Part shown: one piece after another, positions 21,074 through 37,395 of the stretch | Layout of the letters: every line of letters begins with the position of its first letter | How positions within the stretch are numbered: position 1 is the stretch's first letter | Source: Candidatus Latescibacterota bacterium | GTDB lineage: Bacteria; Latescibacterota; UBA2968 | Direction of reading: 5' to 3' | Assembly: GCA_965232265.1 (NCBI GenBank) | Contig: CBDDPH010000002.1 | Span: 434,257-498,256 of the forward strand | DNA length: 64,000 bases | The notes under the pieces: model-generated | Databases searched by the model: none | What the model saw: the letters and a program-made list of their open reading frames with translations, nothing else | What the model was told of the DNA's origin: nothing | Made by a program: the position numbers and the translations under genes

Positions 21074-23440
21074 TTATCTCTTACCGATTCTGAATATCCC
21101 TTCCCGAACAGCGGTCTGGGTACTGTTGAGGTCTTTTACTGTCATGAGCAAGCGATACCGCCCGGGCTCAACGCGGCCGATATCGAGCGCGACGTAGTCG
21201 GCAGTCCAGAGGTCGCGGCCCGTTTGTTCGTATTGTACGGTGATGAGTTCCCCATCTCTTCGCCGTATTCTGGGTTGCGAGGCGAGTTCGCGTCCTTTTT
21301 CCGGGGCGACAGCAAAGGCGACCTGGTAGTGCGTTTGCCCAAAGGTGTCTCGCGTCAGGTTGTAAATTTCAAAATAGACGAAAATGGGCGTGCCCAGGAA
21401 AAAGGTGCGAGATGGCGATGTTGTGATGCGCCACCTGTCGCGCGCGGGCAGGGTATTGCTCTGCTCCTGAGGTGCGGAAGCAGGTTCTTCAATATGCTGT
21501 GCGATCTGTAGATCACTGAGCATTAAACTGTCACCTGAAAAATCGTGCAGGCGCACTTTTTCCCGATAATTGCCCAGTCGATTGGTGTTGACCCGCCACA
21601 TTTGTACGGCGAGGTCGTATTCTCCGGGGGATAGGGAAATGTCGATGCGGTCTCTGGCGATCAGGCTTTTTCCGCGGAGTCCGGGGGGAAGGGGTATGGC
21701 GACGTCTTCCCGCAGGCGTTTTGCGTCGCGGTTCTGATCATCTACGAGGGCGATGCGGCGTTCGACTACGACTGTGGTATCCGGGTCGCTGGACATTGCG
21801 ACTTCGTCTATTGGGAGGCCGATGTTGATCTGGAGGTCTGTTTTGTCGTTTTGTCCGCGGAAGGACAGGGCCTCGTAATAGAAGTTGAGGGGGTCGAGGT
21901 CGGATGTGTCGTAGCGTTCGGGTTTTTTCGCCGCCGCCGCTGCGACTTGTGATGCGGGTGAGAAGTCGTTCATCATTCGGAGGAATCTGAGCGGCGACCC
22001 GCGAGAAGCCACGTCATAAACGTCTTCTCTGTCGATGGTTGGGACGGGTGCATAGTTGTAGATATTCGTGTGCATTTCGTCGGTGAATACGACTTCTATG
22101 CCGTGGTTGATGTCGGGATATATCCACACTTCCCAGGGGACGCTGGAGAAATCGTTCCCGGCTGTGACGGGTTTCCAGCCGCGCAAGCCAAGGGTGCCGT
22201 CGTCTTCTTCGAGGGGGAGGTTGCTTTCGACATTTCGAAGCGCGATGCGGACGGGGAATACGGGTCCGGTGTAGGTGACGGTTGTGCCGGGACGGCCGTA
22301 GAGTTGAAATGCCAGTTTTTCCTGTATGCGTTGCACGGGGATCGGGACGCTGGCATTGGGTTCTCGCCAGGTGGAGCGGTAGTCCGGTTCCCCGTATCGG
22401 ATATAGACTTCGCCCCGCTGGTCAAAGGGGTATTTGTAACGCCCAAAGAAGGTCCGCGCATGCCAGACGCGACGATAGTGTTCCGCGCGTCTCTGGCTTC
22501 CTCCGGTTGTGCCAAAGGTATCTTTGCGGATCCAGAAGGCGTTCAGAAAAGCGTCCACACCTTCGTCTGAGGTCACGCGATACGATGCAATTTCTTCTGG
22601 CGTGGCGATCAGGGAGATGTCTTCATAGATTGCTCTTTCCCGCGCCGATAGGGTTTCCAGATATTTTTGAAATACGGATAGGGCGTCTTCGTAACGCCGC
22701 GAGGCCAATAGCACTTGCGCCAATAGCGGAAGTCTTCGCGCATCGGCCATGTGCGCGGCAATCTGGGTCACGATGTTGTAGCGTTTTTCGGCCAAAAATT
22801 CAAGGGCAAATTCAAGTGCGGGCGTTTCGTCCTGTGTGCCGTGTGACAGGTAGGTGTTATAGTGGGATAGTGCTTGAGGGGTATCGCCTTTTTTGCGATA
22901 AAGGCGCGCCAGTAGCAGGTGGGCGGCACCATAGCGGGGGTTGATTTGTAGTGCTTTGTTTGCCGCTTCTATTGCGTCTTTTTCTTTTCCGCGCGCCAGA
23001 AAGGTTCGGCCGAGGACTTCATAGCTTTCAGCGCGGTTGGAGTCGGCCTGTATCGCTTTTTCAAGGTGGGAGGTCGCGCGTTTGAATTTGTTGCGATATT
23101 CCAGAAGGACCCGTCCCATTCCCAGATGGGCGTCTGCCTGGTACGGGTCGTTTTTCAGCGATCGCTCAAATGCGGCTTCGGCGCTGTCGGGCAGTTGGAG
23201 TCGGAGATAGAGGTGGCCGATACGGGCGAGTATCAGGGTGGAGTCCGCAGAACTCGGTACGGCTTCTTTTAATGTGTCGATGGCTTCTCTGATCAGGGTT
23301 TTTCGCCCGAGTGCCTGGGCTTTGAGATAAAGGGCGTCCAAGTCTGGGTCTTCGGCAGCGGCAGGTCCAAATGGGATCAGACATAAAACACCGATACAAC
23401 ACATCCGCCACAAGAAGCTATTTATCTGAATATTTATCAT
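21074..23440 (-). CDS. Secreted TPR-repeat protein with C-terminal GWxTD domain
   Basis: Signal peptide, N-terminal TPRs, FWIRKD and KYPFDQRGEVYIRYGEPDYRS motifs (GWxTD-family signature), shared C-terminal block IFVYFEIYNLTRDTFGQTHYQV. Confidence 0.65.
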   Translation of the reverse strand: MINIQINSFLWRMCCIGVLCLIPFGPAAAEDPDLDALYLKAQALGRKTLIREAIDTLKEAVPSSADSTLILARIGHLYLRLQLPDSAEAAFERSLKNDPYQADAHLGMGRVLLEYRNKFKRATSHLEKAIQADSNRAESYEVLGRTFLARGKEKDAIEAANKALQINPRYGAAHLLLARLYRKKGDTPQALSHYNTYLSHGTQDETPALEFALEFLAEKRYNIVTQIAAHMADARRLPLLAQVLLASRRYEDALSVFQKYLETLSARERAIYEDISLIATPEEIASYRVTSDEGVDAFLNAFWIRKDTFGTTGGSQRRAEHYRRVWHARTFFGRYKYPFDQRGEVYIRYGEPDYRSTWREPNASVPIPVQRIQEKLAFQLYGRPGTTVTYTGPVFPVRIALRNVESNLPLEEDDGTLGLRGWKPVTAGNDFSSVPWEVWIYPDINHGIEVVFTDEMHTNIYNYAPVPTIDREDVYDVASRGSPLRFLRMMNDFSPASQVAAAAAKKPERYDTSDLDPLNFYYEALSFRGQNDKTDLQINIGLPIDEVAMSSDPDTTVVVERRIALVDDQNRDAKRLREDVAIPLPPGLRGKSLIARDRIDISLSPGEYDLAVQMWRVNTNRLGNYREKVRLHDFSGDSLMLSDLQIAQHIEEPASAPQEQSNTLPARDRWRITTSPSRTFFLGTPIFVYFEIYNLTRDTFGQTHYQVAFAVAPEKGRELASQPRIRRRDGELITVQYEQTGRDLWTADYVALDIGRVEPGRYRLLMTVKDLNSTQTAVREGIFRIGKR

Positions 23441-23494: not shown

Positions 23495-26400
23495 CTACTG
23501 CACGACAAAAAGGGCATTTTTGGAGGCGGTTTGTTCGCCGTTCAAATCGATTATCACGACTTCCAGCGCGTAGCGTCCCGGTTCGCGGTCGCCCAATTCC
23601 AGTTCTGTATAGACGGTTTCCAGGTTCATTGTTCCGACCTGCTCATAGCCCAATAACACTTTTTCTCGTTTGCCGCCGAGCGTTCTCACCAGGCGAGATA
23701 CGGCGCCGCCCACGCCTTTGCCTTTTGGCGCAATTGTGTATTCTACCTGGTATTTGGTTTGACCAAATTCATCGCGTTTCAGATTGTAGATTTCGTAATA
23801 GACAAAGATGCTCTGTCCCTTGGGATAGGTGCGCGTGGGCATGGGGACGACGTGTAACTCGCCTTTGCGGAATTTGTCCTGGGGACCGCCTTCTGCAATG
23901 CGCCAGGCGAGTTCCAGGTCGCTCACTTTCATTGAGCGGATCGGATATTTTTCCAATTCGATTATCTGGCGATACCGCCCCTGCCGCCCAGACAGACGGT
24001 CCTGTAGCTGTACTTCCAGCTTGTAATATCCCGGCGGGGCGTCCAAGCGCACGACGTCGGGGACAAACGCACCCTGTATGCCGGTTTGATCGCCCGCGTT
24101 GCGAAATCGCACATCGCCTGTGCGCCGATACACGTCTCCGGTCTGTTCGTTTAAGAGGGATACGGTTCGCTCCACGACCAGTTCGGTGGTGTTGTTTTCG
24201 GCAAAATACCGTCCCAGCGTGCGCGGGATCCCGGTATAGACTTCCAGCGCGCTCGCGTCATTGCGGGGACTCTGAAAATCCGCGAGGTCATAATAAAATT
24301 CCAGGGGGCGGGTGTTTTCTGGCGTGGCGTAATAATCCGGTGTTACCCGAGCGGCAAATTCGGCTACCCTTCGGGGATTGTACCTGTTGAGCAGGGCCAG
24401 TGTGCGGATGGGGATATTGGGATCCAGAGGCGCGGGCGCGTAGTCGAAATTGCCATTCATTGCTTCGTCGGTGAAGGTTATTTCAATGCCGCCGTTCACA
24501 TCGGTATAGACCCAGGTCTCCCACCGCACCATAGAGGCGTCTTCTGGGACGGAGACCGCGTTGAAATCCGGCTGGAGATCGAAAAATTCACTGCCCATAT
24601 TTCCGGCATTGACGACTGTATTTGCCAGCCGTTCAAAAGTGCTGATGTCCTCTCCGGTCTGGTCATCGCCTGTTGCCTGTGCCGAACGCACGGTGCGCTG
24701 CTCTTCGTCTCCCGCCTCGAGCCCCTGCTGCTCCCGTTCCTGTGACTGTTCAATAGCCTGTTGCATGGATGCGTCCTCAAGTCGCGCCCTGAGCGGGGTT
24801 GCGTCACTTAGTCTGGTTTGAAGTCCTCGTACGGGATATACCGGGCCAAAATAGGTCTGTTGCGCGGCTTCACCACCAAATAGCGTTTGTGCCACGCGCT
24901 CTTTTACACGTTGCACAGCGAGACTCTGATCCAAATTCAGCATGTTTGAGCGCGATCTGTAATCCGGTTCTCCGAATCGGATATAGACCTCGCCGCGCCG
25001 GTCAAAGGGCTTTTTCTTTTCTGAGAAATTTGTCAGGGCATACCATACCCGTCTGTAATGCTCCAGTTTGCGTTCATTGATCGCGGTGATCAAATTTGGA
25101 TCTTTGAGTGCCCAGAACTGTCGCAAAAATGAGGCACGCGCCGCTTCTGTGCCGAGGCTGTTGTATTCTTCCAGTTCTTCGGCGGATGCGAGGAATTGGA
25201 TGTCTTCGTATAGTGCGCGGTGTTGCGGATTGAGATGCGCCACATAGCGGGAAAAATAGGTCTGCGCCCAGTTCGGGCGCTTCAGCTCGAGACACGCCTG
25301 CGCCAAGATGGGCAGGGATGTTATTTCTTCGGGGTACTGGCGGATGTGGTTTTCCAGTAATTTGACAATGCGGTCAAAGTTTTTGCTTCGCAAATAGGCT
25401 TTCGAAAGCAGTTCTCTGCCTTCCGGGTCTTCGGGCGCGAGTGTTATGTAGCGGGCATAGGCCATAGCCGCCTGTTCATGGTCTTCTTCCTGCTCTTCCC
25501 ACCATTTGCCCAGCAGTTTGTAGGTCGGCGCGTAGGTCGGATCCATTGCGATGACGTGGTCGAGGTCGCGTTTGGTGTCGTATTCTTTGAGCTTATATCG
25601 CGTCTGTCCCATGTTGAAACGGGCATCGCGGTGGATATTGTATAGCTGCGATAGCCGTTCATCTGGGGGCCATTGCAAGGCTCTTCTGAAATAGCGGATG
25701 GCATTGTACAGGCCTTTGGGGCGATTTTGAAAGACGAGTCCCAGTCCGTTGTACGCTTCGGATAGACGGTGGTTGAGGTCAATGGCGCGTTCAAAAGCGT
25801 TTCGCGCACGGTCGTAATCCTCTACTTCTAAATAGGCATAGCCGAGGAGGCAATGGCCCAGTTCCAGTTCGGGTGCCACATGGGTGAGTGCGGTTAGTAT
25901 GGGTACGGCGAGGGTGTCGTTTTGCGATAGGAGGGTTTTGCCCATTTTCAGGAGTGAATCTATCTGTGTTTGTCCAATGGGGCGGTCTTGCACGCGGTAG
26001 TTTTCGGCGTGTCGAATCAGTTCTACGAGGCGATTGGGGTAGAAATAGCTGATAACAATAGCCTCACCCACAGCCGCATCGGGTCTGTAGAAATAGCTGA
26101 TGGGCCGCGTGTTGTCCCGGTCTGCGGGGGCGCGAAACAGGCGGGCGATGGCCCTGGGATCGGCTCGGGATTCCGCAACAGCCCATTTTTGAAGCGCGGA
26201 CAGTTGGTCGGGCATTTCCCCGCGGTGGTCGCGGCGATATGCGGTCAATAGTCTGGCGATTGCGGTGAGGTGGTCGCGGCAGACCCAGCGCGATCCGTTT
26301 TTTCGGATTTCTTGTGCGGCACTTTGAAATGTCTGCACATAGTCCTGCATGGGGGATTCGGACAGGCCGTTTTTCGCGGATTGCCTGGCCAGTATTTCAA

Positions 26401-26986
26401 AATGACGCGCTGCCTGTTTGTAATAATCAGCGGCTTGTTTGAACTCCCAGCGCGAGAGACTCAGTTGCGCCAGACGCACGGCGTTGAAGCCCGATATGAG
26501 ATCGGGCAAGGCGTTTTCTCCCAGGGCTGGCGCATCCGGTTTTAATCCTTTTATCGCTTTCTCGGTGGTCCAGATAATAGATTCCATATCCGGATCATCT
26601 ATCATGAGGATATCGCGTCCCGGCGATGTCAGTTCCCAGTATCGGGATGGGGCGAGGGAGATGGTGTGTCCCCTGTGCAAGATGTCGCCAGGTGCGGGCA
26701 ATACCAGGGGGATGGATTGGAAAACGATGGTTCCGGTTTCTGTTCTGCCCAGTTGACCGGGTCGCCCGGGGAAAATACCGAGACACTGTTCCCGTTCCGC
26801 ACCGTCGGTCCACACCTCTGTCAGTGCGATACCGCTCACCTCTCGAGAGTAGGTCCACACCTGACCGGTCGCGCCAGTGCGGAGGATTAAATCCTCCTGA
26901 GCGTCTGCAGTACTCCAGAGCGCGATAGCTATGAGCAATGCGTATCTGACTGTTGGTGAAGTGAACACGGTATTCTCCTGATGCAT
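23495..26986 (-). CDS. Secreted TPR-repeat protein with GWxTD domain (longer paralog of 21074..23440)
   Basis: FWALKDP plus KKKPFDRRGEVYIRFGEPDYRS; C-terminal IFVYYEIYNLKRDEFGQTKYQV; extra ~400-aa N-terminal region. Confidence 0.65.
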   Translation of the reverse strand: MHQENTVFTSPTVRYALLIAIALWSTADAQEDLILRTGATGQVWTYSREVSGIALTEVWTDGAEREQCLGIFPGRPGQLGRTETGTIVFQSIPLVLPAPGDILHRGHTISLAPSRYWELTSPGRDILMIDDPDMESIIWTTEKAIKGLKPDAPALGENALPDLISGFNAVRLAQLSLSRWEFKQAADYYKQAARHFEILARQSAKNGLSESPMQDYVQTFQSAAQEIRKNGSRWVCRDHLTAIARLLTAYRRDHRGEMPDQLSALQKWAVAESRADPRAIARLFRAPADRDNTRPISYFYRPDAAVGEAIVISYFYPNRLVELIRHAENYRVQDRPIGQTQIDSLLKMGKTLLSQNDTLAVPILTALTHVAPELELGHCLLGYAYLEVEDYDRARNAFERAIDLNHRLSEAYNGLGLVFQNRPKGLYNAIRYFRRALQWPPDERLSQLYNIHRDARFNMGQTRYKLKEYDTKRDLDHVIAMDPTYAPTYKLLGKWWEEQEEDHEQAAMAYARYITLAPEDPEGRELLSKAYLRSKNFDRIVKLLENHIRQYPEEITSLPILAQACLELKRPNWAQTYFSRYVAHLNPQHRALYEDIQFLASAEELEEYNSLGTEAARASFLRQFWALKDPNLITAINERKLEHYRRVWYALTNFSEKKKPFDRRGEVYIRFGEPDYRSRSNMLNLDQSLAVQRVKERVAQTLFGGEAAQQTYFGPVYPVRGLQTRLSDATPLRARLEDASMQQAIEQSQEREQQGLEAGDEEQRTVRSAQATGDDQTGEDISTFERLANTVVNAGNMGSEFFDLQPDFNAVSVPEDASMVRWETWVYTDVNGGIEITFTDEAMNGNFDYAPAPLDPNIPIRTLALLNRYNPRRVAEFAARVTPDYYATPENTRPLEFYYDLADFQSPRNDASALEVYTGIPRTLGRYFAENNTTELVVERTVSLLNEQTGDVYRRTGDVRFRNAGDQTGIQGAFVPDVVRLDAPPGYYKLEVQLQDRLSGRQGRYRQIIELEKYPIRSMKVSDLELAWRIAEGGPQDKFRKGELHVVPMPTRTYPKGQSIFVYYEIYNLKRDEFGQTKYQVEYTIAPKGKGVGGAVSRLVRTLGGKREKVLLGYEQVGTMNLETVYTELELGDREPGRYALEVVIIDLNGEQTASKNALFVVQ

Positions 26987-27144
26987 CGTGACCCCTCCCC
27001 CGGCCCCTCCCAGATGCGGGGAGGGGAGACCTGGTTGCCCCCTTCCTCATAGGCACAGGCGAAGCCTACAACGAAGCGGTAGGTGTACAACTGGCCGCCA
27101 GGCCAGTTCACCGAGTAACGGAGTTAGGGGGGTAGGTCCCGTTT

Positions 27145-28563
27145 TCAATGCAGTTTGCGAAACGCAGTCCAGCATACGCGCAATAGCAAAAAGCCGTGCC
27201 GAAAGCGGTGGATCTGTGTGCTTCCGTACACCCGATCCCGATAGCGCACGGGAACTTCTACGATTTTGCGAACGAGTTTGGACGCGCCGAGGAGGAGGTC
27301 GAAGTCGCCAAAGGGATCGAAATCGCATACATCGCCACGCGCTCGGGCCAATTTTTTGTAGTCCGAGGCAAACAGGACTTTGGTACCGCACAGGGTATCT
27401 ACAATGCGTTGCCCCAACAGGCAGCTCAATACCCAGCCGAAAAACCGATTGCCCAGAAGGTTCAGGAATCGCATGGCCTGTTGTTCCATGGGATACACGA
27501 GGCGAGACCCAACGGCGAGGTCGGCGCGGCCTGATATCAGGGCGTCGAAGAATTTGGGCAAGTCCTCTGGCGCCACGGTCAGATCGCCGTCCAAGATCAT
27601 CAATATGTCGCCTCTGGCTGCGGCGAATCCCTGCCGTACAGCGTCTCCTTTGCCCGTTCCGGTTTGCCGAATTAGACGGATGTCTGTTCCGCTATACACG
27701 TCCAGGCATCGCTCGACTTCTTTGGCGGTGCCATCCGTCGAGTTTCCCACCACAAAGATCAATTCTGTATGTGCGCCCATCACAGGTGTGCGTGCTATTG
27801 CCGCTTCTACTGTGCCGCGCTCGTTTTTGCAGGGGATAATGACCGAGCAAGTGACTGCGGATGCTTCCCGTGCGGGAAAGACGGGACGCGCGACAAGTGT
27901 TTGTATGAGACACAGGCGTCTCAGTCCTGGCACTCTCGCCAAGAAGCGATTTGCAAACGATGCGAGAAGGGGTACACGACGGGGCAAAAACAGGCGGCTT
28001 TCTCGTCGTATTTCTTCAAAGTTTGATAGATAAAGTAAATTCTGAATATCCCGGTGTGTCAACCAGTTTTGCACGGGTTCGGGCATTTTTAAGCGAAATA
28101 TTTCCGCGGTTTTTAGCAGGGGTTTCCACAGGGGATTGTAGTGTGTAATCAGGACGCGGGAGCCGGGGAGTACGACTTTCCACAGTTCGCTGAATACGCG
28201 CTGGATGTCCGGCAAAAAACCCAGCAGGTCCGATAAGATGATCCACTCGAATCGCTCCCCTTCGGGTAAATTCTCCGCGCGTCCCACGCGAAATCTTAGG
28301 TCGGGATATTTTTTGCGCGCGCGTTTTATCATTGCTTCGCTGAAGTCAATGCCGAGTCCCCGCCCCGGTTTCAGGCCCGCGAGCAGGTCGCCGGTGCCGC
28401 ATCCTATGACCAGGACGGACGATCCTTCGGGTATCGCGCAACGGCAAAATCGCAAGACTTCTTCGTGATAGGTGCGGTTGCGCCTGCGCCAACGGTCCCG
28501 GTTTTCGGCGGCTTCGTCAAAAAATTTCCGAATGACTCGGCTATCTGGAAGGGGCGTTTTCAT
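27145..28563 (-). CDS. Bifunctional class I SAM-dependent methyltransferase / family-2 glycosyltransferase (dolichyl-phosphate-sugar synthase-like)
   Basis: N-terminal VLVIGCGTGDL (MT motif I); C-terminal CSVIIPCKNE...DGD...(GT-A/GT2). Confidence 0.7.
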   Translation of the reverse strand: MKTPLPDSRVIRKFFDEAAENRDRWRRRNRTYHEEVLRFCRCAIPEGSSVLVIGCGTGDLLAGLKPGRGLGIDFSEAMIKRARKKYPDLRFRVGRAENLPEGERFEWIILSDLLGFLPDIQRVFSELWKVVLPGSRVLITHYNPLWKPLLKTAEIFRLKMPEPVQNWLTHRDIQNLLYLSNFEEIRRESRLFLPRRVPLLASFANRFLARVPGLRRLCLIQTLVARPVFPAREASAVTCSVIIPCKNERGTVEAAIARTPVMGAHTELIFVVGNSTDGTAKEVERCLDVYSGTDIRLIRQTGTGKGDAVRQGFAAARGDILMILDGDLTVAPEDLPKFFDALISGRADLAVGSRLVYPMEQQAMRFLNLLGNRFFGWVLSCLLGQRIVDTLCGTKVLFASDYKKLARARGDVCDFDPFGDFDLLLGASKLVRKIVEVPVRYRDRVYGSTQIHRFRHGFLLLRVCWTAFRKLH

Positions 28564-28578
28564 GTTAGTGGATAGTGG

Positions 28579-30435
28579 TTAGTGGTTAGTGGTTGATGGT
28601 TGCTTTTTCCTGAGTTTTTCCAATTCACGCTGCGCCAGTTGCGCCGCCTGTGGGTCTCCTCGCCAGAGTTCTATAAAGCGCGTGTACGCCTGTATGGCTG
28701 CGGTTTTTTCGCCGTTGTCCCGATGGGCTTTTCCCAGGTTAAAATACGCTTCAGCCCAATTTGGGCGCAGTGCTATGGCGCGGGTATAAGCTGTCGTTGC
28801 TTGGCCGGGACGGCCCAATTTTTCGCGGATTACGCCCAGGTTGTAGAAGATTTCTGCGTTGGTTGGGTCGAGAATAGCCGCTCGTTCAAAGGCAGAATGC
28901 GCGTCGGTTATTTGTCCGGCCTGCATTGCCGCCAGTCCTTTGTTCATGTAGGCTTCGATGTAATCCGGTTCTATTTCTACTGCTTTTTGATATGCGTCTG
29001 TGGCGTGCTTAAAACGGGCTGTTGCGGCGTAGAGATTTCCCAAGTTGTTATAGGTGAGGGCACTTTCTCGCACTGATAGGGCATTTTTATAAGCTGTTTC
29101 GGCATCGGATATCCTGCCGCGTTCAGATAGGGCGTCGCCCAGGGCGTGTTGCATTTTCGCGCTTTCGGGATACGCTGTTACGGCACTTTGGTAGAGTGTT
29201 AAGTCGTCTCGCCAGTCCGCATTTCGGATCATGGTTCGGGTGCTATAGGCCAGGATGATGAGGATGGCAAGGGCGGTTGCGACCGTTTTGCGGTGTTTTT
29301 CAAGGTGTTCAAATCCCAGGCCACACAGCGTGAATACACCGAGAACCGGGATGTATAAAAATCGCTCCTGAAAAATGGCGTTGATCAGGACGAGTGTTTG
29401 CGATACGGCTGAATAGGGTATAAAGAATAATGACAGAGCAAAAAATACGCAGGCCCAGCGCTTGTAAAAAGCACCTGCCCATAACAAGAGACTCGCGATG
29501 CCGAGGATTATGCCCGCGATTGCTTCGGGCGTGAGTATAGAGGTGATGACGGGTATGGCGTTATAGGAGTAATCTACGGATAATTTGATCGAAAACAAAA
29601 TGAGAACGCAATATTTCCAAAAGAGTCCGGCGGCAGTCAAGAGTCTGTGGTCGAGGGGTTGGTCTATAAGTGGGTTGTTGAGCGCGAGTATATTTTCGGC
29701 TGAGAATCCCAGGTTCGCAGCGACTTTTCGCATGATTAGATAGAGGACAAAAACCCCGATGAAGCCAGCCCAGCGCACACTGCGTTGCCACAGGAAATTG
29801 CGTGTCCCATCGCGGGACATAGCAAAGGTCAGATCGACGGCGATGATCAGTCCCAGTACGGTTATCGCGCTTTCTTTGGAGAGCAAGGCGAAAAAGAATC
29901 CCGCGAGGGCCAACCCGTAATATTTTTCTCCGCTTCGGTTGTGCCACCTGATGTACAAAAGCAGGGCTGATAGGGAAAACAAGCCTGCCAATAGATCTGC
30001 ACGCCCAAATGTGATGCCGGCCACGACTTCGGCATGGATGGGGTGTACGGCAAATAGCAATGCGGCCAGGATCGCGCCCCGGTTCAGACCCAACTTCAGG
30101 CAGAGCAGATAGGCGAGGAGGCTGTTGACCACGTGCAGGATCACGTTGGTCAGGTGAAATCGGAACGGCCAAATCCCGCCCAGGCCATCCAGCATAAAAG
30201 ACAGGATTGTGAGGGGGCGGTATTGCCCATTGACGTTAGCTTCTCCCTCGTATCCGGCCCAGTAATGCGTGGTGAAAATACCCCACACATCGGCTTCGCG
30301 AAGCAATCGGTTGCGTTCGATCAGAAAGTGATCGTCATAGACCAATCCGTTGCCCAGGCTGTTTGCGAATACCAGAAAGGCCGCCAATCCCACCGCGACG
30401 AGAGGATAGGTTTTCCCGCGTTGATTTACAGGCAT
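28579..30435 (-). CDS. TMTC-like protein: N-terminal polytopic GT-C/PMT-like membrane domain plus C-terminal TPR repeats (putative protein O-glycosyltransferase)
   Basis: LVYDDHFLI and HPIHAEVVAGITFGRADLL blocks typical of TMTC/DUF1736-type proteins; ~11 TM; 5-6 TPR units at the C-terminus. Confidence 0.55.
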   Translation of the reverse strand: MPVNQRGKTYPLVAVGLAAFLVFANSLGNGLVYDDHFLIERNRLLREADVWGIFTTHYWAGYEGEANVNGQYRPLTILSFMLDGLGGIWPFRFHLTNVILHVVNSLLAYLLCLKLGLNRGAILAALLFAVHPIHAEVVAGITFGRADLLAGLFSLSALLLYIRWHNRSGEKYYGLALAGFFFALLSKESAITVLGLIIAVDLTFAMSRDGTRNFLWQRSVRWAGFIGVFVLYLIMRKVAANLGFSAENILALNNPLIDQPLDHRLLTAAGLFWKYCVLILFSIKLSVDYSYNAIPVITSILTPEAIAGIILGIASLLLWAGAFYKRWACVFFALSLFFIPYSAVSQTLVLINAIFQERFLYIPVLGVFTLCGLGFEHLEKHRKTVATALAILIILAYSTRTMIRNADWRDDLTLYQSAVTAYPESAKMQHALGDALSERGRISDAETAYKNALSVRESALTYNNLGNLYAATARFKHATDAYQKAVEIEPDYIEAYMNKGLAAMQAGQITDAHSAFERAAILDPTNAEIFYNLGVIREKLGRPGQATTAYTRAIALRPNWAEAYFNLGKAHRDNGEKTAAIQAYTRFIELWRGDPQAAQLAQRELEKLRKKQPSTTNH

Positions 30436-30527
30436 TTTTTATCCAGGAAGGACACGAAGGACAAAAAAATAGAAATGCTACGACATACATAGACGCGCCA
30501 GTGCTTTTTGTCATTTACTTTGGTACA

Positions 30528-30572: not shown

Positions 30573-30619
30573 AAAAATGTACAAACTATGGTCATCGCAG
30601 AAACTGCGATAGCCGTTCC

Positions 30620-31615
30620 TTAGAACGTGCCACCTATCGATATGCGTAGCGGCGAGTCGAACAGTGCCACGCCGTCGATATCCTTCAGCAGTGAGTAGGA
30701 TATATCTATGGCGAAGGTACGCCCACCCAATGCCTGCTTGACGCCAGCGCCAAAGGCAAAGGACTCGAGGTCGTAATTCCACTTATAGCCCGCGCGCACA
30801 GCGACCATGTTTTGGACCCAGAGTTCGGCTCCAAAGTGATAGCGTTGCTCGAAGTCAACGGGGAATACGCTCTCGGCTGCCAGCGTCAAATAGGTCGGAT
30901 CGCCTTTTTCGCCATAAACCTCGGCTGCCACGCCCATGTTGTAGGTCAGGGGCATGAGATACGAGAATGCCTCTTCCCTGGCTTTCTGATCTGGCCCGAA
31001 GTTCCTGAATGACATGGCTACGCGCAGGCTTCTAAACCCGGTGTAGAAATGACTGCCCAGGTCTATCGTAAATGAGCTGGTTCTTTGCGTGTAGAGCTTT
31101 TCCTGCACATAGTTGGCTTTGGCACTGAAAGAAAACTTATCCGTGAATTTTATGGCGTAGAGCAGGCCCACCGCCATGTAGTTCACATCGACAAACTGAC
31201 CCGTTCCACTCGGCTGGAAGATGGTGGTTTCTTCGATGGGTTCAACCTGCTGTGTAATCAGGCTGATACCCAGCACTTCGCCCCGAGACGAGTGGGTATT
31301 GAAGACAGCTGCCGCCGAATACAGTTCTGTACCTGCCAGCCACTTGGTGTAATTGGCCTGATAGGCGAACCTTTCCACGTGGGTTAGCCCCGCGCCGTTC
31401 CAGAAGATGGCGTTGATATCATCGGCAATTGCCGTGTATGAATCACCCATCCCCACGGCACGCGCACCCTGTCCGATTTTCAAAAACTGCATGCCTGCGA
31501 TGTTGACTTTCTTGACCCCTTTGATCGCGGTTACGCCTTCATATTCAAGCCCCAGAGCGGGACTGGCGATCAGCAGGCTCAGGAACGCTGTAAGTATGAG
31601 ATTTTTTCGTTTCAC
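30620..31615 (-). CDS. PorV/PorQ-family outer-membrane beta-barrel protein
   Basis: Signal peptide; GARAVGMGDSYTAIADDINAIFWNGAGL motif typical of PorV/PorQ-like barrels; C-terminal F. Confidence 0.5.
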   Translation of the reverse strand: MKRKNLILTAFLSLLIASPALGLEYEGVTAIKGVKKVNIAGMQFLKIGQGARAVGMGDSYTAIADDINAIFWNGAGLTHVERFAYQANYTKWLAGTELYSAAAVFNTHSSRGEVLGISLITQQVEPIEETTIFQPSGTGQFVDVNYMAVGLLYAIKFTDKFSFSAKANYVQEKLYTQRTSSFTIDLGSHFYTGFRSLRVAMSFRNFGPDQKAREEAFSYLMPLTYNMGVAAEVYGEKGDPTYLTLAAESVFPVDFEQRYHFGAELWVQNMVAVRAGYKWNYDLESFAFGAGVKQALGGRTFAIDISYSLLKDIDGVALFDSPLRISIGGTF

Positions 31616-31633
31616 AATGAATACCTCCTTCGG

Positions 31634-34066
31634 CTACTTAATCACCACAAAAGTACCGCGCTGGATCTTGTTTTCGCTGCCCGGGGTTTCGGATACGACG
31701 ACGAAGTAGTACAGTCCGGTCTGGATTTCACCAGCTAGATTGTACGTCACCTGCCGAAACGAGGCTTCGCCCCGGTCTGGATTATCGTGCGTGAGGGTAT
31801 AGACCCTGTCGCCAGATGCCGAAAAGATGTGGATTTTGCACTGTTGGGGAATCCCCACAAAGCGCAGGTTTCGGCTTCTGGGATAGTTATGCTTGTCATC
31901 TACGAAATAGGGATTGGGCACCACCGTTACTTTTCGGTCGAGCTGATCGGTCTCGGAGGTGGTCGGCTGGAAGGGCCGTCTGTCATCGGCGTCGTAGGTG
32001 CGTGCAGTGGCAGGTCCCCATCCGCTCTCGTATCCACCCGTGGCATTGGCGCGTGCTCTGCCCGTGGGCAGATCTCCTATCGCCATTCCGCCGCCCATCC
32101 AGTCGCTATATCCGCTGTTGTAGGGCCGCACCGAGTAGTGATATGCAAACCCAGCGGCCGTATCCAGATCTTCATACGTGTACTTCCCACCAGCGAGCGA
32201 CCACTGGCCGTTGAGGCTGGAACCGCTTTGGCCCTTCAACACGGTGTCGTGCAATTTCCATGGACCCCATCCGAACCAAGTGGAGCGATAGACGCGGTAG
32301 CCCGCGATGTCCTGTTGCCCGGTGTAGGGATTGACTGCGCGGTCGGCATCGTCAATCCACGAAATCTGTTGGCGGGCAAATCCGCTGGAAGTCAGGTCAT
32401 CGGCGGCGATAAACGCATTCGTAGGTGCTGGTGGATGGTGAAAATTGGAATCGTAAATAAAGTGCGCGAGTTGCAGATTCTCATAAGCCGCTTGCTCGCC
32501 CAGGGTTTTGAATTCTTGGATCTTTGTTTCTACCGGCACATCCGAACGATCCCAGGTCAGTATATCCTGATTCTTTATCTGAGCCGGGTGACCGGCGACA
32601 TAAGCCATCACGATCTTGGCGCTTTCGCCTGCCTGAAGCGTGTACGGACCATAGACTTGCGAGAAAATATAAAATTTTCGGTCATCTACGTTGCTCTCGT
32701 TCGGGTTGTCTTTGGTTCCCCCTTTTAGCATGTCACCATACATCTGGGACTCGGTGTCTTTTTCCGTATAGGGGTCGTCAAAGTCGTCTTTGGACCGCGC
32801 CTGCCACCACTGCGCCGAGAAGGGCTGGTCGCCCTGCGGCTGGACGTATTTGCCCATGTCCCGGCTGTTAAAGGCGTGTAGCCCCGGGGCATCGGTAAAC
32901 GCGATGGGTGCCATCACGATGTGTTGCGGTGCTCGAAGCTGGCCTTCGGCTGCATCAACCGCATCCGAATCGGTATGGCCCAGTCGTTGGAAATACGGGT
33001 CGCCCGTATCGTCGTATGGCGACAATGGGTTGTCGGAATCGCGGAAGATGCTGGCTTTATACCCGGGGGCAAACGCACCCGCGTAGTTGCTCGCATCGGA
33101 ATAAAAGTAAATATCATCCACTCCGCGACCTCCCGACGTCACATAACCATCCCAGCCAAAGGCTTGCATAACGCCCATTGCTGCGGACACCCAAGAGTTT
33201 ACAAACGAAAAATAGACATCGTGCTGCGTAGGTGTGCCGCCGGGATTGTCTTCTTGCCCATCCCCGTCAAAATCACCCGTATTGGTGAATGTCAAATCTA
33301 CGAGATAAAAATCGTCAAAGTCCGGGTGGCTCCAATTATAGATCCGCCGCGTCACCTGAATGCCCTGCTTGATATGCACCCATTGTGCAATAATGGTCTC
33401 TTCGGGAATTGACAGATCGGCGATATAGCCACTCAGATTGTAGTTTGCAATGACCACAGGACCGGTTTTGGAGGGATCTAACTCGTTTCCGTAATAACTT
33501 CCAAAATCTGCCTGTGTCACACCGGGCCAGTAATTGGACAGGGTCGGTTCTGATCCACCACCGCTCCAGCCGCCCGAAGTGGCAAGCACGTTTGAGGCAT
33601 CTCCGAGTGTCCGCAGTGGGTTGGGCACGCCCCAGTGTTCTTCTTCGTTGCCTCTGGGATCATAAGGCAATGGACGGATAAAGTCCCTGATCCACGGCGA
33701 GGGCCGTGGCCCGGTCAAACTGATTTGTCCGTCGGATGTCAAAATCCACAAACCATCGCCCATCGAGGTTTTGTAGTCGTTATAGACCTGGGATTTTGGT
33801 CCGCTCGTGAATTGCGACAGAACTTGTCCGAAAGAACCCGGTCCCACGCCATTGTGGGGATAGGCATTTCGGTCGCCGCCGCGGTTGATTTCGGGATTGC
33901 CGCCCTGGATACCCATGTTGTTCCAGGAATTGGAGATCAATGCCCTGGTATTTTCCCTGAAAGGGATTATGTTCGGGTCGAATTGCGCTGTGGCATCGGT
34001 AGCTATAAGAGCACCCACCGCAGCGCATATTGCGACCCATCCTGTAAAAATTTTAAATCGCGTCAT
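31634..34066 (-). CDS. Large secreted protein with C-terminal T9SS-type/FlgD-Ig-like sorting domain (likely start at MTRFKIF..., 34066)
   Basis: Signal peptide at the second Met; last ~90 aa VTVVPNPYF...IHIFSASGDRVYTL...GLYYFVVVS...KIQRGTFVVIK resemble a CTD/FlgD-like beta-sandwich. Confidence 0.45.
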   Translation of the reverse strand: MTRFKIFTGWVAICAAVGALIATDATAQFDPNIIPFRENTRALISNSWNNMGIQGGNPEINRGGDRNAYPHNGVGPGSFGQVLSQFTSGPKSQVYNDYKTSMGDGLWILTSDGQISLTGPRPSPWIRDFIRPLPYDPRGNEEEHWGVPNPLRTLGDASNVLATSGGWSGGGSEPTLSNYWPGVTQADFGSYYGNELDPSKTGPVVIANYNLSGYIADLSIPEETIIAQWVHIKQGIQVTRRIYNWSHPDFDDFYLVDLTFTNTGDFDGDGQEDNPGGTPTQHDVYFSFVNSWVSAAMGVMQAFGWDGYVTSGGRGVDDIYFYSDASNYAGAFAPGYKASIFRDSDNPLSPYDDTGDPYFQRLGHTDSDAVDAAEGQLRAPQHIVMAPIAFTDAPGLHAFNSRDMGKYVQPQGDQPFSAQWWQARSKDDFDDPYTEKDTESQMYGDMLKGGTKDNPNESNVDDRKFYIFSQVYGPYTLQAGESAKIVMAYVAGHPAQIKNQDILTWDRSDVPVETKIQEFKTLGEQAAYENLQLAHFIYDSNFHHPPAPTNAFIAADDLTSSGFARQQISWIDDADRAVNPYTGQQDIAGYRVYRSTWFGWGPWKLHDTVLKGQSGSSLNGQWSLAGGKYTYEDLDTAAGFAYHYSVRPYNSGYSDWMGGGMAIGDLPTGRARANATGGYESGWGPATARTYDADDRRPFQPTTSETDQLDRKVTVVPNPYFVDDKHNYPRSRNLRFVGIPQQCKIHIFSASGDRVYTLTHDNPDRGEASFRQVTYNLAGEIQTGLYYFVVVSETPGSENKIQRGTFVVIK

Positions 34067-34140
34067 AGTATTCCTCGCCCTCCATGTCGGGTTTCGGAAA
34101 GGGTATGCGAGTGGGCTACAAGACCCACTCGCACAACCCG

Positions 34141-37100
34141 CTACCAATTAAATCGCACGCCTACCTGGGTCAATCTGGGTGTGTGCGCGTAAGTGCGATC
34201 GCGCACGTCGCCGTATTGCAGGTAGGTGCTGTCGGTCGGTCGGGGTCCGTCAACCCCGTAGTAGGTGTAGTCATTCCTATTGGTTGGACTCGTTCGGTCT
34301 TTCTGATTAAACAGATTGCGTATATCCAGGAAGACCGAGGTCTGAACCCGGGACGTCATGGCAAAGGTCCTTTCCAATGCCAAGTCTGTGCGAGAGTCCA
34401 TAGCCAGTTCGCGGTAGGGCCGCACGCCACCTTCTGGCGGGGCATAGCGGAACAAGCCACCCGTTTCAACCCGCGTGACCAAGTTGATGCGCGTATTGCG
34501 CAACACTTTGCTGACGATGGCACCGCCCCGTTCGTAATCGGCCGGGAAGGATGCCAGCATTGAGGCGGTTCCAAACTGCCTTCGATCTCCTCCGCGAGGT
34601 TTCAGGAATAGCTGCGTATAACCACCCGTGAGCAGGTAAACGCCCTTATCTTTGGTCGGTCCCTCGAGGGGGCGCATGCCATCCCATTCGCCCGTACCCA
34701 GGGTAGCACCATAAGCCAAGCGCTCGCCGTGTGACTCGTATCGGCTATTGGCACGATCAGCAATCAGGTCGATGTCTTCCTGCGACATCATTCTGGGCAC
34801 TTCGCTGCCCGAGGAGTGGGGCTCCCATTCTACCCACAAATCGGGAACCGGCACGCCAAATTCGGGATGCGTATAGGCAATGTTGACAGCAGCTCTTCTA
34901 ACGCCTTCCTCATCCATGTAGATGTTGCGTATCACGTTGCCGCGCTTGCCCGTGGTAAATGACGCCCACTGGTAGTTATAGGACAGATTGAATGAGAAAT
35001 TGTGGCTGAACCGCTTGCGCAATGCGAGTTCCACGCCCCGCGTATCCCCATAAGCACCGTTGTCCAGGGTGCGAGAATAGCGAATGGAACTGATGCGCGG
35101 TCCCTGCCAAGTTTCGTTGGGATAATGGGTGAATTGCTCGACCTCAGAGCGATAATAAGCCGTTAGTGCTATGGTATAGTCCGAAACAAAGTTCCAGTCT
35201 GCCCCCACTTCAAATGCGGTGGTTTTGGCGGGGCGCAACAGGTGCGTGCCATTTCGACCGCTATACGTGGTTTCCAGGTTGTTGTAGCGCTCTGTGTCGT
35301 CGATGCGGCCGTTGCCGTTGACATCTCTGTCTTCGGCTTTGCCCGCTACCCAGAAGTCTTCGCCAAAGTAGAACCACAGGTCAGCCCATTGCAGATAAAC
35401 ACCCGATGAGAACCGGAATTGCGCCCGTTCGGTGATGGGATGCGAAATTCCGATGCGGGGGCTAAAGACCACATGCCAGGGTGCCTGTGTTGACCAGATC
35501 GATCCCTCATTATAGGCGTAATCTCGCGCCAGGGTAGGTCTGCGGAACATTTCGGAACCGCGGGCACTACCGAACGTTATTCTGCGGGCATTGGGATTGA
35601 AAGCATCCATACGCAGGCCCAGGTTCACGATCATGCCCTCAAATTCCATCTTGTCTTGCACGTAAGCATTGATGGAATACGGCTTGACGCCTTCCTCTCC
35701 GAACCGACCTTCATCTGCCACAAACATCAGATGCCGATCCGCAGGGGTGGCATTGGCGATGATCATCATCATGATGTCTCGGCGCATAAATTCAATACCG
35801 CCCTTGAGCAGGTGGCCCTTTGTCACCTGAGAAGTCAAATCGACCTTCAAGCCCAGACGGTTGCGGTCGGCCACTTTCCAGCGGGCGGCTGTTCGCCCGG
35901 TGTTAAACCAGTTGGCGTCGCCCCTGTGGTTGACCGATGTTGCGTGATATACGCCGCTGGTATCTGTTAATGAGCGGCTGCGCGACACGCGCACTTCGTA
36001 AAATGTTTTGGGCGAGAGCGTGTGGGTGACAACCAGATATTGCATTTCTTCGCTTTCCATGCGCTTTCCAGCCCCCGACCAATCTGGGGGTAAAAACAGA
36101 TCCCGACCGCCGTTGCCCAAACCCCGATGCACGCCCGGAAGCGAATCTGCCGTGCGGATATAGGGATCGGCCACGCCGTCTGACCAGTATTCGTATCCCT
36201 GGTAAAGCCCGCCCAGCTTGAGCTTCAGATTTGGGCTTGGCCTAAAGGTGAAGCTCCCGGAAAGCGTCAGGTTATCTGGACCCGTGGGAATAAATCTGTT
36301 GGTATCGTTGTAAAATCCCGTCTGCTTGGATCCCGGATAGCGATTGGCTAAACGGCCGTGTTTGGCGGTGGCGACAAAGGAGACATTGGTGCCAATGGGC
36401 CCCGAGAGATTTGCCTCTGCATCCCAACCGCTGACTTCTGTGTAGTCCTCTCGAATATGCAGGGGTTCGCCAGCCAATTCTGTCAGGGTCTGGTTATCCA
36501 AACCCAGATCGGGGCGCCGTTCCGTCAGCCAGTTGGGATTGTCCCACTGCATTTTGTCTTGGTGTTGTGGGGCGTCATAGACATTCATACCCCAGTGCTT
36601 TTTCCCGGCAGGATCATAGCGAAATTCGCCCCAGCCATTGTACTGATTGCCGCCGTCTTTGGTCACGATTTGTACCACGCCGGCCTGTGCATTGCCAAAC
36701 TCGGCGGGTGTTACACCGGTGAGCACTGACAATTCTTGAATTGCGCCGCGGTTCACGGTTCGGAACTGCCCGCCAGCACCCCGGCCATCGTTGTAGTTTA
36801 TCCGTATGCCATCAACCATATAGGCCACGTCGCTACCCCATACAACATCGCTGTAACCGGATCCGGGGCCGCCAACCCGACTGCCACGCAAGCGGTTGGT
36901 ACCATCTACGGATACGCCGGGTTGCAGTTGTAAAAGCTCGGATGTGTTTCGCACGATGCTCAAAAGACGTTCGGTTTCTTCGACTGTTACGGTGTATTTA
37001 CTCGTGGTTTTGTCCGGTTCCACGAGTGGACGATCGGCAACCACGACCAGTTCGCCGAGTTCTACAGCGGCTTCCTTGAGCGTGAAATCCACGGTGACGG

Positions 37101-37395
37101 TCTGATCGACGATGACCAGCACGTCCTGCACCTGGACGGTTTCATAACCGACGAGGGAACCGGTGAGGGTGACGCGCCCAGGGTCTGCCTGGATAATTGC
37201 GTAGTACCCATCGGCATCGGTGACAGCACCGCGCTGAGTGCCTTTGATCACGACGTTGGCACCCGGCAACGGCTGTCCGTTATTGTCTCGCACAACGCCG
37301 TTGACCTTACCCGTGCTGCCCGCCCACAGATCGCCGGTTCCTGCAAATAGGAAACCGATGGTCAGGAAACTAAAAAACAACAGTCTGTGCTTCAT
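34141..37395 (-). CDS. TonB-dependent outer-membrane receptor with N-terminal carboxypeptidase-regulatory-like domain
   Basis: Signal peptide, CarbopepD_reg-like GVVRDNNGQPLPGANVVIKGTQRGAVTDADGYY, plug domain, 22-strand barrel ending in ...VGVRFNW. Confidence 0.75.
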   Translation of the reverse strand: MKHRLLFFSFLTIGFLFAGTGDLWAGSTGKVNGVVRDNNGQPLPGANVVIKGTQRGAVTDADGYYAIIQADPGRVTLTGSLVGYETVQVQDVLVIVDQTVTVDFTLKEAAVELGELVVVADRPLVEPDKTTSKYTVTVEETERLLSIVRNTSELLQLQPGVSVDGTNRLRGSRVGGPGSGYSDVVWGSDVAYMVDGIRINYNDGRGAGGQFRTVNRGAIQELSVLTGVTPAEFGNAQAGVVQIVTKDGGNQYNGWGEFRYDPAGKKHWGMNVYDAPQHQDKMQWDNPNWLTERRPDLGLDNQTLTELAGEPLHIREDYTEVSGWDAEANLSGPIGTNVSFVATAKHGRLANRYPGSKQTGFYNDTNRFIPTGPDNLTLSGSFTFRPSPNLKLKLGGLYQGYEYWSDGVADPYIRTADSLPGVHRGLGNGGRDLFLPPDWSGAGKRMESEEMQYLVVTHTLSPKTFYEVRVSRSRSLTDTSGVYHATSVNHRGDANWFNTGRTAARWKVADRNRLGLKVDLTSQVTKGHLLKGGIEFMRRDIMMMIIANATPADRHLMFVADEGRFGEEGVKPYSINAYVQDKMEFEGMIVNLGLRMDAFNPNARRITFGSARGSEMFRRPTLARDYAYNEGSIWSTQAPWHVVFSPRIGISHPITERAQFRFSSGVYLQWADLWFYFGEDFWVAGKAEDRDVNGNGRIDDTERYNNLETTYSGRNGTHLLRPAKTTAFEVGADWNFVSDYTIALTAYYRSEVEQFTHYPNETWQGPRISSIRYSRTLDNGAYGDTRGVELALRKRFSHNFSFNLSYNYQWASFTTGKRGNVIRNIYMDEEGVRRAAVNIAYTHPEFGVPVPDLWVEWEPHSSGSEVPRMMSQEDIDLIADRANSRYESHGERLAYGATLGTGEWDGMRPLEGPTKDKGVYLLTGGYTQLFLKPRGGDRRQFGTASMLASFPADYERGGAIVSKVLRNTRINLVTRVETGGLFRYAPPEGGVRPYRELAMDSRTDLALERTFAMTSRVQTSVFLDIRNLFNQKDRTSPTNRNDYTYYGVDGPRPTDSTYLQYGDVRDRTYAHTPRLTQVGVRFNW

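Follow-up and report, generated by a model that had tools for sequence, protein, structure and literature searches.

The pairing of a lipid-phosphate-sugar synthase with a GT-C protein O-glycosyltransferase is known from the actinobacterial and fungal Ppm1(Dpm1)/PMT systems (GT2 and GT39 enzymes), and donor synthases are as a norm unlinked in eukaryotic and actinobacterial O-mannosylation. Mycobacterial Ppm1 is a synthase fused to another enzyme domain, and a precedent for the methylation of lipid-linked sugars is provided by AglP of Haloferax volcanii, a class I SAM methyltransferase that acts on a Dol-P-linked glycan. In the three-component systems of periplasmic glycosylation, namely GtrA/GtrB/GtrC, ArnC/ArnEF/ArnT, and PPPRS/MATE/GT136 (PMC11127046), a GT2-type polyprenyl-phosphate glycosyltransferase gene adjoins a GT-C gene, and auxiliary sugar-tailoring enzymes are known among them. 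The animal TMTC1-4 proteins (CAZy GT105), human members of which are linked to brain malformation, possess 11 transmembrane segments with the N-terminus inside and the TPRs outside (PMC7801869). Their motifs include M1 (DD), M3 (RxD), M4 (KE(T/Q)xxT), and M7 (ERxxY) (PMC7801869, Table 4), together with M2 (SHKSYRP), the S-H-K of which has been modelled as contacting mannose (PMC7801869). No biochemical characterisation of any bacterial member of the TMTC-like or methyltransferase/GT2 (MT/GT2) family, whether as a bacterial GT105 or as a methyltransferase-fused polyprenyl-phosphate GT2, was found in the literature searched, nor was any description of a methylated polyprenyl-phosphate sugar donor or of a characterised GWxTD protein.

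A locus carrying one gene of each family was analysed within a window of 64 kb, this being the whole stretch of Latescibacterota DNA under study. The original prediction of two genes 15 nt apart proved exact to the nucleotide, with the following features on the minus strand.

21074..23440, minus strand: paralogous TPR/GWxTD protein, 788 aa (Pfam/NCBIfam)
23495..26986, minus strand: 1163-aa exported TPR/GWxTD-domain protein (TIGR04514 GWxTD domain, 52.9 bits)
27145..28563, minus strand: MT/GT2 protein, 472 aa, bifunctional class I SAM methyltransferase / GT2
27148..27858, minus strand: GT2 (GT-A fold) domain, aa 236-472 (Pfam, PDB sequence match, Foldseek)
27874..28563, minus strand: methyltransferase domain, aa about 1-230 (Pfam, SAM motif, Foldseek)
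28564..28578, minus strand: intergenic spacer, 15 nt, where a CCACTAA-like heptamer repeat ends
28579..30435, minus strand: TMTC-like (GT105-like) GT-C glycosyltransferase, 618 aa, 11-helix membrane domain and C-terminal TPR domain
28609..29205, minus strand: TPR domain, aa 411-609, made up of twelve helices in six TPR-like pairs, periplasmic by prediction
29218..30435, minus strand: membrane (catalytic) domain, aa 1-406 (modelled secondary structure; colinearity with the membrane domain of animal TMTC)
30331..30336, minus strand: loop-1 acidic motif D34-D35 (TMTC motif M1), presumed catalytic base region, within the translation VYDDHF
30620..31615, minus strand: PorV/PorQ-family outer-membrane protein (NCBIfam NF033709, 161.5 bits, cut-off 90)
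31634..34147, minus strand: 837-aa exported protein, candidate acceptor, with orthologues at the same position
34141..37395, minus strand: TonB-dependent-receptor-like outer-membrane protein (CarboxypepD_reg and Plug), member of the conserved array

Since full-length homologues at E = 0 exist for each of the two ORFs, neither is a chance reading frame. The GT-C/TPR gene, which had been called the downstream gene, is so by plus-strand coordinates only; by transcription it comes first and the MT/GT2 gene second. No terminator-like site was found on the minus strand of the spacer, which also lacks an obvious Shine-Dalgarno sequence, and the search for a sigma-70-like promoter within 26800-30800 returned none, a result that says little for this phylum. 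By a logic likened to that of GtrB/GtrC, ArnC/ArnT, and Ppm1/Pmt, the two genes most plausibly supply the donor and carry out the transfer in a pathway of periplasmic glycosylation via a lipid-linked sugar, a reading that we consider evenly poised between right and wrong.

The 618-aa protein was expected to carry a GT-C multi-transmembrane domain followed by TPRs as in the TMTCs, and this architecture is borne out: it aligns colinearly, at 30% identity, to an animal TMTC1-like protein (BLASTP), with strong Pfam TPR matches at aa 425-600. Eleven helices make up its modelled membrane domain (10-26, 90-114, 119-139, 141-167, 170-186, 188-205, 211-240, 303-324, 328-344, 363-381, and 383-406), leaving long outward loops at aa 27-89 and 241-302. 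Searches of PDB chains with the membrane domain, as a single sequence or a profile, gave no match, and no solved TMTC-family structure was found in the PDB copy searched; fold comparison was thus needed, and the confident GT-C fold of the model came closest to yeast Pmt4, with Pmt2 also among the best or near-best matches. There is no Pfam match to the PF02366 PMT domain or to MIR; in contrast to the PMT enzymes, the protein is GT105-like rather than GT39 and has TPRs in place of MIR. The topology adopted here (11-TM, N-in, TPR-out) rests on homology with the TMTCs (PMC7801869). Charge counts for the loops between DSSP helices gave no guidance, as the helices overrun the membrane. Judged by its sequence, the 618-aa GT-C is genuinely homologous to the TMTCs (CAZy GT105). 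The label "eukaryote-like" is misleading, the membrane domain alone accounting for ~50,000 cluster representatives in the public protein collection.

The acidic motif proposed as a check on this assignment is present, D34-D35 lying directly after helix 10-26, with D34 present in all of 65 homologues, an animal TMTC among them, and D35 in no fewer than 90%. Across the same 65, Y72, R73, P74, E136, E188, and Y361 are likewise invariant, and D35, K187, D288, E357, and R358 nearly so; R73, K187, E188, D288, E357, R358, and Y361 count among the catalytic and ligand positions. M1, M3 (R145-A-D147), M4 (K187-E188-S-A-I-T192), and M7 (E357-R358-F-L-Y361) are all kept, such that DD, YRP, HPxHxE, RxD, KExxxT, and ERxxY are shared with animal TMTC1-4. 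The differences from the animal proteins lie in M2, which reads N-G-Q-Y-R-P and retains YRP alone, in M5, where DW becomes D288-Y289, and in M6 (PxxP), which reads P-Y-S-A and lacks the second proline; the TPR array is also shorter, with about six pairs. In M2 and M5 the bacterial homologues depart from the animal one in the same manner. The S-H-K position, here N-G-Q, is variable among them, and the "mannosylation" of the original prediction is not supported.

These losses, together with Pfam catalytic-domain matches that fall just under the curated cut-offs (TMTC_DUF1736, which covers the TM7-TM8 loop, 26.2 bits against 27; PMT_2, 25.0 bits against 26.1), are what could be said for the 618-aa protein being an inactive, membrane-anchored TPR scaffold. 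Against this, D34, R73, E136, E188, and Y361 are invariant and the five further residues nearly so, the model gives its 406-aa membrane domain a complete GT-C fold at high confidence, and its orthologues exceed the DUF1736 cut-off of 27 (31.1 bits in L003, 87% identical; 31.3 bits in L001, 73-74% identical). A dead scaffold is accordingly very improbable, and a predicted active TMTC-type glycosyltransferase is the assignment carried forward.

The second protein was described as a polyprenyl-phosphate-sugar synthase-type GT2 fused to a class I methyltransferase, and both halves answer to that description. Glycos_transf_2 matches aa 240-366 (Pfam, 85.9 bits), the DxD motif (D325-G-D327, 27583-27591) aligns with the DAD of DPMS, and the best PDB sequence match of the 472-aa protein is the DPMS of P. 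furiosus (5mlz, 1e-13). The structures nearest to the GT2 half are polyprenyl-phosphate glycosyltransferases only, the top Foldseek matches being DPMS 5mlz (3.4e-13), ArnC 9bhc (5.5e-13), and GtrB 9nyd (2.5e-10). Among NCBIfam models the best match is AglJ, the Dol-P hexosyltransferase of Haloferax volcanii (3.9e-29, 102 bits, far under the equivalog cut-off of 325), with the Dol-P hexose transferase (51.6 against 375) and ArnC (33 against 529) models also under their cut-offs. In the methyltransferase half, Methyltransf_25 (51.7 bits) and Methyltransf_11 (48.8 bits) match above cut-off at aa 50-140 (Pfam), SAM motif I reads VLVIGCGTGDL at aa 50-60 (28384-28416), and 15 homologues, drawn from many phyla, all share G54, G58, D73, and E97; Foldseek returned generic small-molecule class I methyltransferases. 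Unlike AglJ and AglP, the two activities are fused here, and an O-type GT-C takes the place of the AglB oligosaccharyltransferase as partner.

No transmembrane segment was found in the 472-aa protein (maximum Kyte-Doolittle 19-residue window 1.26, under 1.6), which sets it, together with its fused methyltransferase, apart from the synthases of the three-component systems. Anchor-less polyprenyl-phosphate GT2 enzymes do exist, as exemplified by human DPM1 and mycobacterial Ppm1 D2, and the missing anchor therefore does not rule out synthase activity. In the AF2 model (pLDDT 81.4), the long helices 362-383 and 453-471 of the GT2 domain are candidate membrane-interface helices.

From family membership, the GT2 half would transfer one sugar from a nucleotide sugar to polyprenyl (undecaprenyl) phosphate at the cytoplasmic face, the enzyme being presumably peripheral on the membrane. 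The fused SAM-dependent methyltransferase could then tailor the lipid-linked sugar, which is the weakest step of the scheme, before a flippase would carry it across the membrane. No candidate gene for the latter was identified: as a further difference from the three-component systems, no adjacent flippase of GtrA size, of MATE/Wzx-like, or of SMR type, nor any other obvious one, was found in the 64-kb window, which holds no small multi-TM ORF and no Polysacc_synt/MATE match, its other multi-TM proteins being DUF6785, an FtsX fusion, an SSF transporter, and a 662-aa ORF (the last one unscanned). Finally, as its conserved catalytic residues and fold suggest, the TMTC-type GT-C, with D34/D35 in the first periplasmic loop, would pass the sugar to an acceptor held by the TPRs.

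The most likely acceptor would be a Ser/Thr residue on some exported protein. The gene lies in a conserved outer-membrane array, whose 837-aa, PorV-like, and GWxTD/TPR proteins are the best candidates, a setting removed from that of the animal TMTCs, the hosts here being bacteria without cadherins. The PorV-like gene stands upstream of the TMTC-like gene, a position kept in L001, L083, L167, L165, and L085, and the 1163-aa GWxTD/TPR gene is the conserved neighbour beyond the MT/GT2 side of the pair. All array neighbours have signal-peptide-like N-termini, as read from their translations, and would thus be exposed to a periplasm-facing enzyme. Neither Pfam nor NCBIfam assigns the 837-aa protein to a family; a T9SS sorting domain was considered for its C-terminus, where the likeness to T9SS-type or Ig-like sorting domains is faint and under cut-off (CHU_C, E 0.006; FlgD_ig, E 0.007).

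The entire case for protein as the glycosylation target, as first proposed, is made by the TMTC homology and the TPR domain, and it falls short of proof because TPR domains also serve as periplasmic scaffolds in polysaccharide systems. The same donor and transferase logic could hence deliver the sugar to an envelope glycan or lipid (LPS, capsule, or exopolysaccharide), the TPRs serving as a periplasmic scaffold by which the transferase docks onto export or outer-membrane machinery. This we hold to be rather unlikely: the closest characterised relatives of the membrane domain are the TMTC protein O-mannosyltransferases, its top fold match is Pmt4, and the conserved neighbours of the TMTC-like gene encode exported proteins, not polysaccharide synthesis or export functions. 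A protein acceptor remains the favoured reading. The GT-C of this locus differs from those of the three-component systems in bearing TPRs and in that its nearest characterised relatives act on proteins.

Whether the two genes belong together is a separate matter. The arrangement is kept in five related loci (L001, L003-L006), where the spacing ranges from -22 to +58 nt and protein identity is as low as 73-81% (L001), and MT/GT2 loci that are 93% identical occur in Latescibacterota MAGs. In relatives at 42-49% identity (L083, L167, and, from Handelsmanbacteria, L165), the array of TonB-receptor-like, 837-aa, PorV-like, TMTC-like, and GWxTD genes is retained and MT/GT2 is absent from it, the GWxTD/TPR orthologue directly following the TMTC-like gene; in the Handelsmanbacteria genome, MT/GT2 sits on another contig, adjoining a Wza-like polysaccharide export gene. 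Among 80 other diverse TMTC-like loci, the fusion is adjacent in one (L116), and a DPMS-like GT2 is nearby in about six. Sequence comparison across these loci indicates that the pair is not an ancestral unit: MT/GT2 was inserted in this sublineage alone, the other neighbours of the TMTC-like gene being kept across candidate phyla, and it is a recent addition. The original observation is confirmed, and the interpretation placed on it in part.

Alternatively, the two could be mere neighbours, the TMTC-like enzyme using a donor made elsewhere and MT/GT2, serving some other GT-C pathway, having arrived by rearrangement. The absence of MT/GT2 from the otherwise intact array of L083, L167, and L165, the 79 of 80 loci without an adjacent fusion, and the unlinked synthases that are the norm in O-mannosylation all speak in its favour. 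The insertion nonetheless separates precisely the GT-C gene from the gene that follows it, in the same orientation, at 15 nt and without a terminator; the arrangement has persisted in the five related loci; and the MT/GT2 family strongly tends in general to adjoin GT-C genes. Taken together, these observations make a chance neighbourhood unlikely, and the dedicated pair is retained as the working interpretation.

The MT/GT2 family spans more than 15 phyla. In 49 of 82 MT/GT2 loci (~60%), a GT-C-like membrane protein is encoded no more than 3 kb away, a count derived in part from iterating a profile built on hydrophobic proteins and hence prone to drift. These neighbours include Alg9/GT22-like, PMT_2-like, and TMTC-related ones, in many phyla and differing gene orders, and the family probably serves many kinds of GT-C enzyme. 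Those of L007 and L073 are TMTC-related (E 2e-47 and 1.4e-44) and lack YRP, KE, and DY, and were counted just as related GT-Cs; those of L041, L042, and L082, first taken as TMTC-like from pairwise links, were dropped for want of alignment to the TMTC profile. A second methyltransferase is found among the immediate neighbours, on either side, in 33 of 76 loci, and an NAD-dependent sugar epimerase/dehydratase in 14 of the 76, which fits a sugar-tailoring module. A broader and doubtful proposal is that MT-GT2 makes a methylated polyprenyl-phosphate sugar used by different GT-Cs in more than 15 phyla of bacteria and archaea, and that in Latescibacterota it was recruited beside a TMTC orthologue that O-glycosylates components of the conserved, uncharacterised array (the TonB-receptor-like, 837-aa, PorV-like, and GWxTD/TPR proteins). 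If so, a functional GT105 system would for the first time be established in bacteria, which would suggest that TMTC-type protein O-glycosylation arose there, and the methylated lipid-linked donor would represent a new tailoring step in periplasmic glycosylation.

Both families are very large and already catalogued, and the prediction of a glycosylation pair is well founded, at the level of annotation, and no surprise. Should it hold, it would offer a tractable bacterial model for TMTC-type glycosyltransferases and a function for two very large bacterial families that go under generic names. The names in question are "tetratricopeptide repeat protein" and [quoted passage not shown].

The interval 27145-30435 comprises two minus-strand open reading frames (ORFs) separated by a 15-nt gap, in agreement with the original prediction of two adjoining genes, and homologues over the full length of both encoded proteins were returned with E = 0 by the homologue search:

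28579-30435, minus strand: TMTC-like (GT-C/TPR) ORF, 618 aa
27145-28563, minus strand: MT/GT2 ORF, 472 aa

The GT-C/TPR gene had been described as the downstream one, which is valid in plus-strand coordinates only, since the 618-aa gene is transcribed first, followed by MT/GT2, with no terminator-like site between the two on the minus strand. MAGs of Candidatus Latescibacterota yielded loci sharing 93% identity with the MT/GT2 gene, which places the window in that phylum. A CCACTAA-like heptamer repeat of about four copies (window 28564-28600, minus) runs from the final codons of the TMTC-like gene through its stop and the 15 nt that separate it from the start codon of MT/GT2.

The TPRs of the 618-aa protein gave strong Pfam matches (aa 425-600), and its membrane part scored just under the Pfam cut-offs for both TMTC_DUF1736 (26.2 bits, cut-off 27) and PMT_2 (25.0 bits, cut-off 26.1), the former cut-off being exceeded by orthologues. 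An animal TMTC1-like protein, the one returned by the homologue search, was aligned by BLASTP in a single colinear stretch of 600 columns (30% identity, E 1e-67) spanning the first helix to the TPRs. In the AlphaFold2 model built from a 65-sequence alignment (pLDDT 93.9, pTM 0.91), the residues up to 406 form eleven long helices, followed by the twelve helices of the TPRs; the predicted GT-C and TPR architecture of TMTC proteins is borne out by this model and the colinear alignment. The TMTC motifs, seven of which (M1-M7) were defined in PMC7801869, were checked in the 65-sequence alignment and in an 11-sequence alignment of the membrane domain:

D34-D35: M1 (DD), D34 invariant and D35 in at least 90%
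N-G-Q-Y72-R73-P74: M2 (SHKSYRP), YRP alone kept, invariant
H131, P132, E136: HPxHxE, kept
R145-A-D147: M3 (RxD), kept
K187-E188-S-A-I-T192: M4 (KE(T/Q)xxT), kept
D288-Y289: M5 (DW), D kept and W replaced by Y in the aligned bacterial homologues
P-Y-S-A: M6 (PxxP), without the second proline
E357-R358-F-L-Y361: M7 (ERxxY), kept

The loop-1 acidic motif of GT-C enzymes, which had been singled out as the feature to check, is thus supplied by D34-D35. Together, the motifs, the colinear alignment, and the model identify the 618-aa protein as a TMTC-type (GT105) member of the GT-C enzymes whose predicted catalytic residues are intact, and not as a bare TPR scaffold. The possibility that it is a dead scaffold is highly improbable, as the conserved catalytic motifs and the confident model speak against it. 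By homology with the TMTCs, its N-terminus would be cytoplasmic and its TPR domain periplasmic.

Two Pfam domains were assigned to the 472-aa protein, which contains no transmembrane segment:

aa 50-140: class I methyltransferase domain
aa 240-366: Glycos_transf_2

Its best NCBIfam match is AglJ (3.9e-29, far under the equivalog cut-off), and among PDB sequences it is closest to DPMS of Pyrococcus (1e-13), whose DxD aligns with its own. In the structural model (pLDDT 81.4), the GT2 half resembles the polyprenyl-phosphate glycosyltransferases DPMS, ArnC, and GtrB, and the methyltransferase half resembles generic small-molecule methyltransferases. The latter half is probably active, given that its SAM-binding residues are invariant among homologues from many phyla. 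These GT2 resemblances and SAM residues lend support to the lipid-linked, possibly methylated donor that had been proposed, the lipid acceptor, the role of the methyltransferase, the coupling of the two enzymes, and the protein acceptor being putative elements of that route. Mannosylation is not supported: the positions assigned to mannose contact in TMTC models have not been conserved here, nor does the GT2 half bear any indication of its nucleotide sugar.

The TMTC-like gene belongs to a conserved outer-membrane array in the order of small OMP, TonB-dependent-receptor-like protein, unknown protein of ~810-840 aa, PorV/PorQ-family protein, TMTC-like protein, and GWxTD/TPR protein (no mention of GWxTD was found in the literature searched). 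The array of the window (19085-38137, minus), with an unknown protein of 837 aa and one or two GWxTD/TPR proteins, is also present at L001, L083, L167, L165, and L085, and is kept around TMTC-like relatives at 73% (L001), 48% (L083/L167), and 42% (L165) identity. As L165 comes from a Handelsmanbacteria MAG, the array is shared from Latescibacterota to Handelsmanbacteria. MT/GT2, by comparison, occupies the position between the TMTC-like gene and the GWxTD gene in the window, L001, and L003-L006 alone; L083 holds no trace of it, and the Handelsmanbacteria MAG carries it on a different contig, adjoining a Wza-like export gene. This restriction, while the array is kept elsewhere, marks the adjacency as a lineage-specific insertion, on the same strand, 15 nt away and free of a terminator, that persists in relatives with as little as 73-81% protein identity. 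Such a tidy insertion is compatible with selection for co-expression, although the system is not defined by adjacency. The proposal that the pair forms a functional unit stands only in part: the co-oriented arrangement is kept in the loci just named, but the fusion adjoins a TMTC-like gene in only 1 of 80 metagenome loci centred on that gene and is absent from L083, L167, and L165. That the two genes are uncoupled neighbours, as this scarcity would allow, is considered unlikely.

Signal-peptide-like N-termini were observed on all array proteins, which are thus plausible candidate acceptors or partners of a periplasm-facing enzyme; the array hence supplies concrete candidate substrates. In the mechanism we consider most likely, the GT2 half would charge polyprenyl phosphate with a sugar at the inner membrane face, the fused methyltransferase may methylate the polyprenyl-linked sugar, and a flippase would carry the lipid-linked sugar across the membrane (no obvious flippase gene was found within the 64-kb window). 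The TMTC-type enzyme, via D34/D35, would then move the sugar onto a TPR-bound acceptor, probably Ser/Thr of an exported array protein. That the acceptor is instead a glycan or a lipid, and the TPRs a scaffold, is rather less probable. The logic of the pair is that of the known GT2 and GT-C routes GtrB/GtrC, ArnC/ArnT, and Ppm1/Pmt, and of the three-component systems of PMC11127046; it differs from all of these in that a methyltransferase is fused to an anchor-less synthase, the transferase is TPR-bearing and of the GT105 type, and the pair is without an adjacent flippase.

A GT-C-like membrane protein was located within 3 kb of MT/GT2 in 49 of 82 loci, a count obtained with an iterated profile in which some drift is possible. 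The Alg9/GT22 model was matched by a 17-member Bacteroidota cluster of these neighbours and PMT_2 by 13; in Latescibacterota loci the neighbours are TMTC-like proteins, and TMTC-related ones were found, in reversed gene order, in one deltaproteobacterial and one planctomycete MAG. Among the 76 non-redundant MT/GT2 loci, a second, stand-alone class I methyltransferase adjoins the gene in 33 (24 downstream, 9 upstream) and an NAD-dependent epimerase/dehydratase in 14 (11 upstream, 3 downstream). This is the pattern expected of a lipid-linked-sugar synthase and tailoring enzymes supplying periplasmic GT-C transferases, and the flanking genes suggest a widespread, uncharacterised sugar-tailoring module. 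Around the 80 metagenome TMTC-like genes, a DPMS-like GT2 occurs in about six loci and tandem TMTC-like paralogues in many, with up to four per contig in L101, L136, and L141.

Both families are very large and already catalogued. The TMTC-like membrane domain alone retrieved 49,982 cluster representatives at E <= 1e-3, 26,190 at E <= 1e-10, and 1,612 at E <= 1e-30, named 'tetratricopeptide repeat protein' in databases or, for some in JGI, 'protein O-mannosyl-transferase'. The MT/GT2 fusion family (at least 8,000 matches), named by NCBI as a generic bifunctional methyltransferase/glycosyltransferase, is ~55% identical across Nitrospirota, Bacteroidota, Omnitrophota, Planctomycetota, Elusimicrobiota, Acidobacteriota, deltaproteobacterial lineages, CPR bacteria, and some archaea (MAGs at L029 and L045). 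Bacterial members of GT105 are mentioned in reviews; no characterised one was found in the literature searched, nor was a characterised bacterial member of the MT/GT2 family.

Several minor observations concern the surrounding genes. The last 100 aa of the 837-aa protein (31634-34147, minus), whose gene adjoins that of the PorV-family protein, hold a beta-rich segment faintly resembling T9SS/FlgD-Ig-type C-terminal domains (CHU_C E 0.006, FlgD_ig E 0.007, both under cut-off). A gap of 3 nt separates the second GWxTD gene from the next one (19085-21070, minus), whose DUF6785/DUF6784 product has 11 hydrophobic segments and may be a candidate for the flippase; a homologue lies ~8 kb from MT/GT2 in the distant locus L002 (1-611). 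Genes for a sodium:solute symporter and a protein of the isochorismatase family (38415-40727, minus) stand ~8-10 kb away from the TMTC-like gene. In L084 (9870-15302) both families recur no more than 6 kb from a TMTC-like gene of 34% identity, a co-location that may be coincidental. Lastly, a 1513-aa ORF (14485-19026, minus) combines M28 peptidase, MacB-like periplasmic, and FtsX permease domains in an unusual fusion.
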